A stretch of DNA of 12,228 nucleotides from a virus: the UHGV virus genome UHGV-0278805. One strand, 5' to 3'. Below the pieces are notes generated by a model. It ran no database searches. It saw only the letters and a program-made list of their open reading frames with translations, and was not told the DNA's origin. The first letter of the stretch is position 1. Each line of letters begins with the position of its first letter. Position numbers and translations under genes: made by a program. Below, one piece after another: positions 1,497 to 4,684 of this stretch.

Positions 1497-1513
1497 TTTT
1501 GTGGAGAAATTTG

Positions 1514-1879
1514 ATGCGTGATATTCAGATCATCCTTGAACGTTGGGGGGCATGGGCAGCTAGTGATAGCTCAGGAGTGGACTATTCGCCTATAGCTGCT
1601 GGGTTTAAGGGACTTCTTCCCTATACCAGTAAGGCACGCCAAGCTTGTTCAGATAATGATGCGCTAATTATTGAAAGTTGCTTGGAGCAACTAAAAAAAA
1701 GAAAACCTTATGAGCATTCTCTACTGGTTGCGCATTATTTGTACGGGTTTTCAAAGCGGAAGATTGCCAAAGTACAAGGAAAGGATGAGAAATTAATCCG
1801 TATAGAAATATTGTTAGCAGAGGGATTCATTGATGGTTGCCTTTCTACTCTCGATATTCATTTAGATATGGAGTTATAA
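1514..1879 (+). CDS. Q: Late-gene antitermination protein Q (phage 21/82-type, QuuD/QuuQ-like)
   Basis: ATG at 1514 preceded by GGAG at 1503-1506; stop TAA 1877-1879. Translation MRDIQIILERWGAWAA...IAAGFKGLL...LSTLDIHLDMEL closely resembles remembered DLP12/Qin Q-like antiterminators. The track start at 1499 is a TTG read-in; the ATG with an RBS is preferred. Confidence 0.8.
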   Translation: MRDIQIILERWGAWAASDSSGVDYSPIAAGFKGLLPYTSKARQACSDNDALIIESCLEQLKKRKPYEHSLLVAHYLYGFSKRKIAKVQGKDEKLIRIEILLAEGFIDGCLSTLDIHLDMEL

Positions 1880-1888
1880 TAAAAATAA

Positions 1889-1913
1889 CCCCGTAAACTT
1901 TATGTTTACGGGG
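1889..1913. terminator. Bidirectional intrinsic terminator between convergent Q and the TIR-like gene
   Basis: Perfect 10-bp stem CCCCGTAAAC (1889-1898) / GTTTACGGGG (1904-1913) with 5-nt loop, flanked by an A-run upstream (AATAAAAATAA) and a T-run downstream (TTATTTCTTTTTTTT), so it reads as a hairpin plus U-tract on either strand. Confidence 0.6.
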
Positions 1914-1918
1914 GAAGG

Positions 1919-2734
1919 TTATTTCTTTTTTTTATTACTTTCAGATAATCGTCGGTTTAATGTGTATTTTATTTGGTTCCTAATCATTTTTTCAGGAATG
2001 TCATATTTGTCTAAGAATGATATTATTTCATCCTCGTCAAGCAATCCATTCTTTATAATTTCATCTATCTGTTTTTGTAGATACCAAACATCCTTCTGTT
2101 CTACAGGAGTTAAATTCATATGGCTATTTATGGAGTTGATAGTAGCATCACGTTCAAGAACTCTAATCCTTTGATTTAATGAACGAGTGTTTTGTAATAT
2201 TTCAGATAAAAGATCTTGTTCAGTACGTGGTTTTACTTCTTCAGTTGGAGGGTATTGATCTAAAGCTCGTTTAAAATTTTTTTCAAATTGCTCCCAGTAT
2301 GTATTAAAAACTTGCTTTAGAATACGGTCATCTAAAGATTTATCGACAAGACAATTGTTTATTGTCCTTACTAATTCCCAAACACTCTCTTTATTTGGCG
2401 TTGTGTGATTGAATTGAGCAAGTGGATCTTTTAAATCTTCTGGTTTTAAGTCAATCAAGAATGTACAAACTTTATTTGTTGAAAGTCCTTTTGCTAGTGC
2501 TCCTGTTTCAAACAAAATCCATGGTTTATTTTTATTTTCTTGTGTCAAACATACAATGCCGACAGATACATCTTTTAATTTATCATTAATTTCAGAGAAC
2601 CATATAGCGCCACGATCAATATCTCTGGTTGAAATCCATGGCTGCGAAGCTTGGATAACACACTTCAGCCAGTCGCTAATAAGTTCTGCAACAGCTTGAC
2701 TTCTTTGCCCAGACCAACTTATGAACACTTTCAT
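1919..2734 (-). CDS. TIR-like domain protein with uncharacterised C-terminal helical/charged domain (candidate anti-phage defence or abortive-infection effector)
   Basis: Minus-strand ORF; preferred start is the ATG at 2734-2732 (MKVFISWSG...), preceded by GGAG 6 nt upstream on the coding strand; the track start at 2758 is a TTG. Stop TAA (plus-strand TTA 1919-1921). N-terminal ~120 aa carry TIR-like hallmarks: beta-A strand VFISWSG, then GIVCLTQEN and PWILFETGAL with a glutamate at the position of the catalytic Glu in NAD-cleaving TIR domains. C-terminal ~150 aa is K/E/D-rich with no motif I recognise. Gene is strongly AT-rich relative to its neighbours. Confidence 0.7.
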   Translation of the reverse strand: MKVFISWSGQRSQAVAELISDWLKCVIQASQPWISTRDIDRGAIWFSEINDKLKDVSVGIVCLTQENKNKPWILFETGALAKGLSTNKVCTFLIDLKPEDLKDPLAQFNHTTPNKESVWELVRTINNCLVDKSLDDRILKQVFNTYWEQFEKNFKRALDQYPPTEEVKPRTEQDLLSEILQNTRSLNQRIRVLERDATINSINSHMNLTPVEQKDVWYLQKQIDEIIKNGLLDEDEIISFLDKYDIPEKMIRNQIKYTLNRRLSESNKKKK

Positions 2735-2759
2735 TATGTACTCCATGTAATCACTCAAA

Positions 2760-2857
2760 AGGGACTGAAATTTACATTAAAAATTAAATAAAATCACTCA
2801 CGCGGTCCGCAGAAACCATTGTAATCTGTTATGAGTGGTTACTTCGCCACACAACTT
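2760..2857. promoter_or_regulatory. AT-rich intergenic region, candidate divergent promoter region (TIR-like gene leftward; possible phage late promoter pR'/qut rightward)
   Basis: About 100 bp of AT-rich DNA between the 5' end of the minus-strand TIR-like gene and a + strand terminator. A possible + strand -10 TAAAAT at 2789-2794 with a weak -35 CTGAAA at 2765-2770. Promoter hexamers are weak matches and are not experimentally anchored. Confidence 0.3.
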
Positions 2858-2884
2858 AAACCCGCCGTCGAGCGGGTTTTTTTG
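2858..2884 (+). terminator. Intrinsic terminator (candidate tR'-like terminator of a short late leader transcript)
   Basis: AAACCCGC (2858-2865) / GCGGGTTT (2872-2879) stem with 6-nt loop, followed by TTTTTGT; a classic GC stem plus U-tract on the + strand. Confidence 0.65.
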
Positions 2885-2981
2885 TACCTGTAAACCTGGT
2901 GCAGTACGGTAAACACGCTGGTGGTCGTGAATACTGACTTTTTATCTTGCTGGCTTTTTAGACAAGAGTTATTGGTATGTC

Positions 2982-3200
2982 ATGTTAACCAGAAGGAAAA
3001 AAGACATGCTAAAACAGCAAGATATGACAGAAACGGCGAAAGTTGTTTTTAATGAATTAAGCATCGAACCGGCAACAGTCGGGGAGATTGCACAAAACAC
3101 ATATCTTTCACGCGAACGCTGTCAGTTAATACTGACCCAGTTGGTTATGGCGGGGCTGGCAGATTACCAGTTCGGCTGTTACAGACGCCTTCAGCAATGA
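2982..3200 (+). CDS. Small helix-turn-helix-like protein of unknown function (possible regulator accompanying the methyltransferase)
   Basis: 72-aa ORF; alternative start ATG 3006 (MLKQQDMTETAK...) lies 9 nt after GAAGGA. Segment TVGEIAQNTYLSRERCQLILTQLVMAGL has the look of a recognition helix / winged-helix region. No strong family recognition. Confidence 0.45.
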   Translation: MLTRRKKDMLKQQDMTETAKVVFNELSIEPATVGEIAQNTYLSRERCQLILTQLVMAGLADYQFGCYRRLQQ

Positions 3201-3349
3201 AGGACTTTTAATTTGTGAAAATGGGCGGCTGGTGGGTGTTGGTAGCACCTGCCAGCCATTCGCTCATGCTTACTGGTCACAAGCGAACCACGGCCCACTG
3301 CTTTAGCGCAAAAGCAGAGTGAGCCTACCAGAGTTACGCTTACTGATCC

Positions 3350-4402
3350 ATGAAAAATACTGTAAAAATAAACAGTGTTGATTTAATCAACGCTGATTGC
3401 CTGCATTTTATTCAGTCCCTGCCTGATGATTCCATTGACCTGATTGTTACCGATCCGCCGTACTTCAAGGTGAAACCCAACGGCTGGGACAATCAGTGGA
3501 AAGGGGACGAAGATTACCTTAAGTGGCTGGACCACTGTCTGGCCCAGTTCTGGCGGGTGTTAAAACCTGCCGGAAGCCTTTACCTGTTCTGTGGGCATCG
3601 CTTGGCATCTGATATTGAGATCATGATGCGTGAACGTTTCAACGTGCTTAACCATATCATCTGGGCGAAGCCGTCCGGACGTTGGAATGGGTGTAATAAA
3701 GAAAGTCTGCGCGCATATTTTCCTGCCACAGAGCGCGTTCTGTTTGCTGAACATTACCAGGGGCCATATCGCGGCAAAAGTGACGGCTATGCGGCAAAAG
3801 AAAGGGAACTCAAACAGCACATAATGGCACCGCTGATATCGTATTTCAGGGATGCTCGTGCCGAACTGGGTATAACGGCAAAACAAATTGCCGAAGCCAC
3901 AGGTAAGAAAAATATGGTTTCCCACTGGTTTGGTGCCAGTCAGTGGCAGTTGCCGAATGAGGCTGACTATCGGAAGTTACAGGCACTGTTTTCCCGTATA
4001 GCGGCAGAGAAGTTTCAGGAACAACAACTGGAACAACCACACCACCAGCTGGTGGCATCTTATGATTCACTGAATCGCAAATATTCTGAATTGCTGGATG
4101 AGTTTAAATCTCTCCGGCGCTATTTCTCCGTATCAGTCTCCGTGCCTTATACCGATGTCTGGATGCATAAACCCGTTCAGTTCTACCCGGGTAAACATCC
4201 GTGTGAGAAACCTGCGGATATGCTCCGGCAAATAATCAATGCCAGTAGTCGACCTGGTGATCTGGTTGCTGATTTTTTTATGGGATCCGGTTCCACAATA
4301 AAAGCAGCAATGGCGCTGGGGCGTCGGGCCTTAGGTGTTGAGCTTGAGTCAGAGCGGTTTAACCAGACAGTGAAAGAGATAAACGAGCTGGTGGGGAAAT
4401 AA
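3350..4402 (+). CDS. Orphan DNA methyltransferase, beta-class N6-adenine/N4-cytosine type (YhdJ/CcrM-like architecture)
   Basis: 350-aa ORF. Motif IV DLIVTDPPY near the N-terminus and SAM-binding motif I DFFMGSGST near the C-terminus (beta-class order); HPCEKP segment parallels HPTQKP of remembered YhdJ-type enzymes. No adjacent restriction endonuclease candidate is present. Weak Shine-Dalgarno upstream of ATG 3350. Confidence 0.85.
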   Translation: MKNTVKINSVDLINADCLHFIQSLPDDSIDLIVTDPPYFKVKPNGWDNQWKGDEDYLKWLDHCLAQFWRVLKPAGSLYLFCGHRLASDIEIMMRERFNVLNHIIWAKPSGRWNGCNKESLRAYFPATERVLFAEHYQGPYRGKSDGYAAKERELKQHIMAPLISYFRDARAELGITAKQIAEATGKKNMVSHWFGASQWQLPNEADYRKLQALFSRIAAEKFQEQQLEQPHHQLVASYDSLNRKYSELLDEFKSLRRYFSVSVSVPYTDVWMHKPVQFYPGKHPCEKPADMLRQIINASSRPGDLVADFFMGSGSTIKAAMALGRRALGVELESERFNQTVKEINELVGK

Positions 4403-4408
4403 TCTGGT

Positions 4409-4433
4409 GGCCACGTAGGTGGCCTTTTTATTT
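4409..4433 (+). terminator. Intrinsic terminator downstream of the methyltransferase
   Basis: GGCCAC (4409-4414) / GTGGCC (4419-4424) stem with 4-nt loop GTAG, followed by TTTTTATTT, beginning 7 nt after the MTase stop codon. Confidence 0.5.
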
Positions 4434-4468
4434 CCATTACACAGCACCCGCATCTGCGAGGTGGGGTT

Positions 4469-4684
4469 ATGAAATCCATGGATAAGTTAACAACGGGTGT
4501 CGCCTATGGCACCTCAGCAGGTAGTGCCGGGTACTGGTTTTTACAGTTGCTCGATAAAGTCACGCCCTCACAGTGGGCGGCAATAGGTGTGCTGGGTAGT
4601 CTGGTATTTGGCTTGCTGACGTATCTGACAAACCTTTATTTCAAGATTAAAGAAGATAAGCGTAAGGCTGCGAGAGGTGAATAA
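4469..4684 (+). CDS. S: Pinholin/antiholin, phage 21 S21-like, with dual-start motif
   Basis: Translation [71 protein letters not shown] closely matches remembered phage 21 S. Two in-frame ATGs at 4469 and 4478 (Met1-Lys-Ser-Met4) correspond to the antiholin (71 aa) and holin (68 aa) starts. Two hydrophobic segments. Confidence 0.85.

Follow-up and report, generated by a model that had tools for sequence, protein, structure and literature searches.

A conserved structured leader RNA before an orphan adenine methyltransferase gene in a phage late region

The locus and its leader RNA

UHGV virus genome UHGV-0278805, a DNA of 12,228 nucleotides (nt) that was analysed at full length and is called the window below, carries in this order the gene of antiterminator Q, a tR'-type terminator, the gene of a 64-amino-acid (aa) protein predicted to be a winged helix, an RNA of 135 nt, a DNA methyltransferase gene, a second terminator and the genes of holin, endolysin and Rz. 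The initial annotation had singled out from this row an orphan beta-class methyltransferase gene with a small open reading frame (ORF) before it and a terminator behind it (2982-4433), and all three are present there, far beyond chance. Absent from its observations was the spacer of about 150 nt between the two genes (3201-3349), which is a conserved structured RNA. This leader RNA, not the gene pair, is the feature worth following up; the gene pair is ordinary and the methyltransferase a routine member of an already known family. The features of the region, with the helices of the leader in its junction fold (state A), are:

2858-2885, plus strand: tR'-type intrinsic terminator, 8-bp stem AAACCCGC/GCGGGTTT followed by T7
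3006-3200, plus strand: small winged-helix protein gene, 64 aa, in the cargo slot between tR' and the leader RNA
3188-3203, plus strand: terminator-like hairpin P0 (CCTTCA-GCAA-TGAAGG), spanning the stop codon of the small ORF and followed by a T-rich tract
3215-3349, plus strand: conserved structured leader RNA, ending at the methyltransferase start codon
3222-3226/3293-3297: P1 (UGGGC/GCCCA), closing the three-way junction
3227-3238/3246-3257: P2
3259-3267/3279-3287: P3
3298-3304/3311-3317: hairpin P4
3319-3324/3338-3343: hairpin P5
3350-4402, plus strand: orphan beta-class N6-adenine DNA methyltransferase gene, M.EcoGII family by sequence, 350 aa
4409-4433, plus strand: intrinsic terminator between the methyltransferase and holin genes, GGCCAC-GTAG-GTGGCC followed by TTTTTATTT

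The leader consists of a three-way junction (P1-P3) and two hairpins (P4, P5). Across genera the nucleotide identity of 3201-3349 is at least as high as that of coding DNA (for example 73-78% versus 64-67%), and the conservation reaches the bases abutting the methyltransferase AUG. In an unbiased covariation test, for which 46 distinct sequences were aligned with MAFFT only and the structure was read from the window, 79.7% of the cells were paired as compared with at most 46% when the partners were slid, and 20 of the 39 pairs were altered on both sides versus 11.5 ± 1.5 in shuffles (0/500). A covariance model built from this alignment, R1, gave exactly one match per locus, on the plus strand and ending at the methyltransferase ATG. 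After fitting to R1 (67 sequences) 34 of the 39 pairs covaried versus 16.3 in shuffles; the fitted alignment favours the modelled structure, the MAFFT-only result being the unbiased one.

Rfam 15 holds no match to 3201-3349 at the gathering threshold and none at E ≤ 10, ARAGORN found neither a tRNA nor a tmRNA in it, and no Rfam match covers the lambda or HK620 counterparts of the leader described below. The sequence was not found in a literature search, and the papers on the prophage small RNAs AgvB/AsxR, StxS and Pas contain no description of the element. Apparently the leader RNA has not been described so far.

Other readings of the spacer were tried and rejected. The window contains an ORF of 31 codons in it; 1-nt indels (in loops) and early stops in the homologues exclude a conserved ORF. 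The loops of P2 (UGGUAG) and P5 (CUACCA) match perfectly in the window, as a kissing interaction would require, yet inspection of the homologues by eye shows a P2 loop free to vary opposite a constant P5 loop; a hairpin AUCAG/CUGAU in place of P5 leaves, again by eye, its Y position uncompensated. Just 5' of the methyltransferase ATG a Dam site (GATC, 3345-3348) is nearly invariant; it is part of the anti-start-site helix proposed below.

Elements matching R1 are found in Enterobacterales prophages, Stx phages, N15 and an Aeromonas phage, the hosts including E. coli, Shigella, Salmonella, Klebsiella, Providencia, Yersinia and others. In IMG/VR the methyltransferase gene lies immediately 3' of the R1 match in 55 of 59 cases; the other four matches precede holin genes or a C5 methylase gene. 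Two phages lie outside the training set of the model. N15 (38.8 bits) has no small ORF and carries an annotated late promoter and terminator directly 5' of the element. In the Aeromonas phage phiARM81ld (26.1 bits; locus L003, 2229-2577) a zinc-ribbon ORF of the Mu Com type (PF10122, 27.9 bits, cut-off 22.9) comes next after the element and overlaps the start of an M.EcoGII-family methyltransferase gene by 77 nt. In many, not all, of the related loci a hairpin of variable sequence, or tR' itself, stands 5' of the leader, regardless of what lies upstream; in the window this hairpin is P0 (−7.7 kcal/mol, z −2.69).

From the four IMG/VR matches that have no methyltransferase gene directly downstream a sister subfamily of the leader ("UUCGUGAAAAUGGGCGAC...") was located on 32 viral contigs (L119, L107, L134 and L211-L238 among them; 30 were used, L092 and L224 being set aside), where it directly follows a GC-rich hairpin. 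It is succeeded by holin genes of several classes, including lambda-S-like ones, and on four contigs by a C5 cytosine methylase gene (L092, L213, L215, L232); the holin-type elements never carry the small ORF. The structure transferred to a MAFFT alignment of 20 of these sequences was 84.5% paired versus at most 45% when slid, and the covariation score was 0.177 versus 0.089 ± 0.008, mostly from P2. Since the sister form precedes holin or C5-methylase genes, the leader belongs to the start of the late operon and not to this enzyme alone: its place is directly behind tR', irrespective of which late gene comes first.

Shortened forms exist as well. Xenorhabdus and Photorhabdus loci (L062-L087) have kept the small ORF together with a reduced leader, situated about 90 nt 5' of the methyltransferase ATG, in which GUGAAAUGG, P2 and a portion of P3 remain; the 3' strand of P1, P4 and P5 are missing. 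The P22-like phages HK620, epsilon34, ST104 and ES18 retain the 5' half of the element. In lambda the interval from tR' to S (45015-45155) scores 23.5 bits with R1 when the filters are off; in the relic (L239, 1216-1371, corresponding to lambda 45015-45170) hairpins resembling P2 and P3 are preserved, together with three segments complementary to one another; the last of these lies directly against the S gene's sdi hairpin.

In Stx2a, Stx2c and Stx2d converting phages (for example 1720a-02; L004, 2620-4949) the small ORF, leader and methyltransferase gene are flanked by Q on one side and stx2A on the other. The late transcript of the toxin therefore includes the leader, which heads the late operon and precedes the toxin genes. 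The locus of phiSTEC1575-Stx2k (L209, 2268-3339) is degenerate: it still has the small ORF, the blastn match to the leader is limited to its first 57 nt, and an ORF named "HTH domain protein", tRNA genes and stx2k follow downstream of this remnant.

The spacer could also be explained without a switch, as a set of back-up transcription stops, or of processing or stability hairpins, that lower the read-through of tR' in the lysogen. This explanation is motivated by tandem terminators downstream of lambda t'R1, reportedly described by Luk and Szybalski in 1983 (a literature search for them, as for the D12-methyl motif mentioned below, yielded nothing usable). It would fit that the element always comes after tR' or a terminator-like hairpin and that the P2-like hairpin of lambda is followed by GUUUUG. 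It is nevertheless unlikely, since in the window no U-run follows any of P2-P5 and the terminator scan flags none of them, since the covariation backs a closed three-way junction, the junction nucleotides of which are conserved, an architecture that a simple terminator can do without, and since the conservation continues up to the AUG.

The methyltransferase and the winged-helix gene

The ORF at 3350-4402 matches the PF01555 (N6_N4_Mtase) profile over positions 1-220 of 221 with E = 2.2e-42 (145.9 bits, cut-off 26.7). DPPY (aa 35-38, nt 3452-3463) precedes FMGSG (aa 310-314, nt 4277-4291) by about 270 aa, which is the beta-class motif order, and the closest relatives in the PDB are the beta-class enzymes M.RsrI, M.MboIIA and CcrM. 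The assignment to the beta class, made at the outset from DPPY followed by FxGSGST, is borne out by all three. No restriction endonuclease partner was found in the 12-kb window by ORF and Pfam scans, as had been claimed; the enzyme is prophage-encoded between Q and the holin gene, with no cognate nuclease within 12 kb, and is thus an orphan.

By its sequence the window enzyme is a member of the M.EcoGII family. It is identical to M.EcoGII at 281 of 349 positions (81%) over the full length, with 2 gaps and an unbroken alignment across the target-recognition residues (about 160-237). It is also 100% identical to the methylase of phage cdtI and 98.3% identical to SfV orf48, and the enzyme of mEp460 likewise falls in this range of 98-100%. 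The nearest enzyme to M.EcoGII in a sequenced phage, that of 1720a-02 (93% identical), stands in the same layout of small ORF, leader and methyltransferase gene. Among complete E. coli genomes 1597 of 5426 carry the methyltransferase module, as do 60-95 phage records. M.EcoGII and M.EcoGI come from prophages of E. coli O104:H4 C227-11 and share with the window enzyme the motif order, the length of about 350 aa and the location in a prophage late region; the published work on M.EcoGII is without the upstream RNA and the small ORF (PMC5778455).

M.EcoGII methylates adenines in DNA, single-stranded DNA and RNA in any sequence context; its gene is unexpressed in the lysogen, and constitutive expression does harm (PMC5778455); its toxicity on expression and its silence in the lysogen are also reported in PMC12707154. 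Ancestors reconstructed across the M.EcoGII clade stay non-site-specific (PMC11551740), and homologues in Shiga-toxin-producing E. coli (STEC) O111 that are 92-93% similar to M.EcoGI and M.EcoGII left no detectable motif in the methylomes of the lysogens (PMC6602927). By analogy with M.EcoGII, the window enzyme would methylate adenines irrespective of sequence context, and its placement behind tR' appears consistent with an enzyme that is toxic and silent in the lysogen. Two points weigh against this assignment of activity: 19% of the residues differ from M.EcoGII, so that the specificity of the orthologue could differ, and the M.EcoGII sequence behind the 81% was machine-read from the PDF of Supplementary Table S1 of PMC11551740, with a few apparent errors.

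According to the initial annotation the enzyme could be a sequence-specific orphan that marks a defined motif in the lysogen, either as an epigenetic regulator or as protection against a single restriction system. Most PF01555 enzymes are indeed site-specific, M.RsrI, M.MboIIA and CcrM, the best solved relatives, recognise defined sites, and the 19% difference would leave room for such a specificity. It is highly improbable in view of the homology to M.EcoGII, which extends over the full length and includes the recognition domain, of the missing motif in the O111 lysogens (PMC6602927), of the non-specific ancestors throughout the clade (PMC11551740) and of the position of the gene behind tR', with no promoter of its own detected in a simple promoter scan.

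Since M.EcoGII is non-specific and unexpressed in its lysogen, the methylome of a lysogen would reveal no motif. The absence of a motif, which had been named as an outcome that would speak against the enzyme, would therefore not refute its function, and a comparison of a lysogen with a cured strain is unsuited to this family. What would be informative is DNA from the virions released on induction, not lysogen DNA. Recognising the family thus spares a futile search for a methylation motif in the lysogen; the family is already a laboratory reagent.

The small ORF (2982-3200) had been read as a helix-turn-helix (HTH)-like frame of 72 aa in a layout resembling that of the controller proteins of restriction-modification (R-M) systems. 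It is a real gene, pN/pS being 0.14 over 66 pairs, which indicates purifying selection; its length did not stand. The conserved start is ATG 3006 (64 aa) with AGGA 8 nt upstream, most of the 318 homologues have 63-64 aa, RefSeq annotates the 195-nt version, and Hafnia and Providencia phages, despite different upstream DNA, share the N-terminus MLKQ/MLNQ. The 72-aa version, starting at 2982, is probably 8 codons too long.

Nor did the resemblance to controller proteins hold. There is no HTH_3 match, and the AlphaFold (AF2) model (pLDDT 89.7) is an H-H-H-beta-beta winged helix, not an Xre-type domain. Foldseek lists as best neighbours the winged-helix domains of IclR (TM 0.84), of the N-terminus of O-methyltransferases, of MarR/OhrR and of SelB, and against the PDB and viral models it returns generic winged helices only. 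Pfam matches are all below threshold (DprA_WH 17.2 bits, TrmB 16.4 bits), a PDB sequence search with the small-ORF profile gave marginal matches only (E ≥ 0.04), PADLOC has no model for the protein, and in PHROGs it belongs to phrog_331 of unknown function. It does not match PF10122 (Mu Com) and, with two cysteines only, lacks the CxxC...CxxC zinc ribbon.

The gene is present in 55 of 78 species-representative methyltransferase loci; in the other 23 the slot is filled by unrelated ORFs or empty. Two alleles of the small ORF, about 50% identical, occur within otherwise near-identical DNA, one allele being carried by the window and SfV, the other by cdtI, mEp460 and Stx2c phages. Optional cargo, sitting in a moron slot directly behind tR', is the most fitting description of the small ORF.

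The exchange has the look of a cassette (window 3040-3190 versus L005 2740-2900), the flanks, the first 11 codons and the recognition-helix motif RCQLILTQL being conserved, and the window pairs the SfV-type small ORF with a methyltransferase identical to that of cdtI. Other cargo found between tR' and the leader (in L018 and L021 at a distance of about 250-500 nt 5' of the methyltransferase gene; also L012, L017 and L058) comprises a cysteine-rich protein of 79 aa (three CxxC) and proteins of 147-163 aa; a Pfam scan of the 79-aa protein and of one 147-aa protein found no match.

Two further roles have been weighed for the winged-helix protein. As a controller-type transcription factor it would time or limit the transcription of the methyltransferase gene. 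It shares with the C proteins of R-M systems a small gene for a DNA-binding type of fold directly 5' of a methyltransferase gene, and automated names make it a TrmB-family regulator. The C proteins, however, have the five-helix HTH of Xre, whereas the window protein is a winged helix with sub-threshold Pfam matches; no restriction endonuclease gene, the production of which would need to be delayed, lies beside the small ORF in the window or in related loci; the simple promoter scan detected no promoter between the two genes; and the gene is dispensable across the family, 23 of 78 loci having kept methyltransferase and leader without it, with unrelated ORFs in the slot. A controller function is thus very unlikely.

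As an analogue of Mu Com, which acts on the mom mRNA, the protein would bind the adjacent leader RNA and activate the translation of the methyltransferase. The winged helix of SelB bound to SECIS RNA is among its structural neighbours (TM 0.77), the small ORF, where present, is always immediately 5' of the RNA element, a true Com-type ORF occupies the equivalent position in phiARM81ld, and Mom and M.EcoGII are both toxic and silent in lysogens (PMC12707154). Yet 20 of 57 loci have the full RNA element and the methyltransferase gene without the small ORF, the holin-type elements always lack it, an identical RNA accompanies two alleles that are 50% different, and the winged-helix fold is generic. 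This role we regard as quite unlikely, if somewhat less so than that of a controller.

Late-operon context and proposed operation

The flanks of the region hold the following features:

501-1496: gene of a DUF968 protein (ORF and Pfam scans)
1499-1879, plus strand: Q antiterminator gene (PF06530 Phage_antitermQ, E 9.6e-49; phrog_79, anti-termination protein Q-like), upstream boundary of the late operon
1919-2758, minus strand: gene of a TIR-domain protein (Pfam TIR_2, E 4e-7; PADLOC TIR-TM, E 1.4e-57)
2787-2857, plus strand: conserved block, where homology resumes; tentatively the probable pR', Q-utilisation site and short leader
4469-4684, plus strand: gene of a phage-21-type holin (PF04971 Phage_holin_2_1, E 2e-35), downstream boundary

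Beyond the holin gene ORF and Pfam scans find on the plus strand a lysozyme (endolysin), Rz, a terminase and a portal protein. The position of the methyltransferase gene between tR' (2858-2885) and the holin gene, as initially annotated, agrees in ORF, Pfam and terminator scans. A pattern scan found 9 intrinsic-terminator sites in the region versus 3.7 ± 1.8 expected. Of the two that bracket the gene, the tR'-like one has −12.0 kcal/mol (z −2.91 versus shuffled controls) and the other, a 6-bp GC hairpin at 4409-4424 with a T-run, −12.3 kcal/mol (z −2.56). Phage SfV is 96.8% identical over 2859-4463 and has terminators annotated at both homologous places, and N15 has a stem-loop annotated at the place matching 4409-4433. 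That late transcripts have to read through 4409-4433, as had been concluded, with Q-modified polymerase, is upheld by this same layout in SfV and N15. The first interpretation of the region is in all partly supported.

Past the reverse-strand cargo specific to the window, homology to other prophages and phages picks up again at 2787-2857, where the block GCGGTCCGCA...TAATCTGTTAwGAGTGGTTACTTCGCCACACA is common to the window, 1720a-02 and cdtI. This stretch probably holds the late promoter pR', the Q-utilisation site and a short leader, an assignment that is tentative.

We consider it probable that the region works as the promoter-proximal part of a lambdoid late operon in which an M.EcoGII-family methylase is made after Q-dependent read-through and the structured leader acts as a second catch. 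The methyltransferase would be made only after induction, once Q carries RNA polymerase past tR'; the progeny phage DNA would be broadly N6-adenine-methylated and so be protected from many restriction systems, and the lysogen would escape the toxic activity. The order is that of the lambda late operon (pR'-qut-6S RNA-tR', Q), where also the late genes behind a short terminated leader are reached by Q-modified polymerase only; lambda differs in having neither P1 nor a methyltransferase gene.

For the second catch an alternative fold of the leader is proposed. When folded alone, the window element adopts a structure other than the junction fold, state B, with the helices:

3221-3226/3262-3267: AUGGGC/GCUCAU, extending P2
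3275-3279/3344-3348: GGUCA/UGAUC, the freed 3' strand of P3 with the bases before the start codon
3281-3285/3337-3341: AAGCG/CGCUU

On this proposal the leader would be bistable. In state B the 5' strands of P1 and P3 would pair with each other, and the 3' strand of P3, set free, would pair with nucleotides −16 to −2 before the AUG, so that initiation would be blocked. The junction fold would permit translation, and what selects it might be a ligand, a protein or the kinetics of transcription by Q-modified polymerase; a dangerous first late gene would in this way be secured a second time. The predicted energy in the window is −56.9 kcal/mol for both states, with P1 enforced in one case and the P2 extension in the other. 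The pairing AUGGGC/GCUCAU is found in 95.5% of the cells; the anti-start-site helix is paired in 76.6% versus at most 37% when slid, with 15 double changes versus 6.5 ± 2.1 in shuffles (0/500). The methyltransferase AUG has no Shine-Dalgarno sequence. State B would account for the conserved tandem C·A/A·C mismatches of P3, for GGUCAC and for CUGAUC next to the AUG. In holin-type and lambda forms the segments CACGAACAAAG, GGAUUUGUUC and UGAACAAAUCC are, by eye only, mutually complementary, which suggests a comparable relay that may end next to the sdi hairpin of the S gene. The best mechanistic reading of the leader would accordingly be a translational switch for the first late gene, as modelled here.

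A number of results weigh against this picture. State B is more stable than state A by a mean of 3.4 ± 3.3 kcal/mol over 59 homologues, and the two states are within 3 kcal/mol of each other in only 25 of the 59. The 5' strand of AUGGGC/GCUCAU is almost invariant, so that shuffles fail to distinguish this helix. The covariation of the anti-start-site helix is modest, its score being reached by 11 of 500 shuffles, and its distal three pairs are poorly kept. In a crude calculation the accessibility of the start region changes little between the states, 9.1 versus 7.2 of 19 nt being unpaired. The relics in lambda and HK620 have no P1. On the side of transcription, the simple promoter scan found no conserved sigma-70 late promoter; its match at 2765-2794 falls in window-specific DNA.

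A parallel to such layered control is com-mom of phage Mu, likewise a toxic adenine-modifying prophage enzyme that is silent in the lysogen and under both transcriptional and translational control, the latter via mRNA structure close to the start. In phiARM81ld a Com-type ORF is paired with this RNA and this methyltransferase family, in the com-mom arrangement, and its location between the RNA element and the methyltransferase gene may be taken as a precedent for tight translational control. The window differs in that its small ORF is a winged helix and not a Com-type zinc ribbon, its enzyme is a methyltransferase and not Mom, and its leader is a 135-nt multi-helix element where Mu has a single inhibitory stem.

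Going further, it is possible, though doubtful, that the leader is a riboswitch-like switch common to lambdoid, N15-like and P22-like phages which gates the translation of the first late gene. Its three-way junction would then be an aptamer, and the signal sensed a small molecule, a protein of the phage or the host, or the change in elongation that Q brings about in RNA polymerase; the genes gated would be the toxic non-specific methylase, a C5 methylase or a holin, and in some Stx2 phages the leader would influence everything downstream, including stx. With riboswitch-like and other bistable leaders it shares a conserved, covarying 5' structure, here before a DNA methyltransferase gene, and a possible alternative fold of the initiation region; it differs in being unlike any Rfam 15 model even at E ≤ 10 and in the class of the genes, PF01555 and also holins and a C5 methylase. 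A precedent for an RNA leader on methylase genes is the D12-methyl motif, which Weinberg et al. reportedly described in 2017 upstream of D12-class adenine methylase genes; it is unrelated to the window leader, and the gene class differs.

If the leader does gate the translation of lethal late genes, this would explain how a prophage tolerates read-through of tR', would offer a handle on the silencing of M.EcoGII-type enzymes and would add a post-transcriptional layer on top of the classic Q antitermination switch.

Cargo between Q and the late promoter

The TIR-domain gene (1919-2758), which lies between Q and the putative pR' block, has a GC content of about 30% versus 47-50% and is a candidate for anti-phage defence cargo. 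The gap between Q and the late promoter is a cargo hotspot, with all the cargo on the reverse strand (window 1880-2800; L001 3582-5953; L005 1037-2425). Elsewhere it contains genes of a hypothetical protein and a nucleoid-associated protein (E. coli AR434) or orf53 and orf54 (phage cdtI). In E. coli AR434, adjoining a degraded prophage (L001 11739-13638), genes of a reverse-transcriptase-domain protein and a SLATT-domain protein form a retron-like defence pair.

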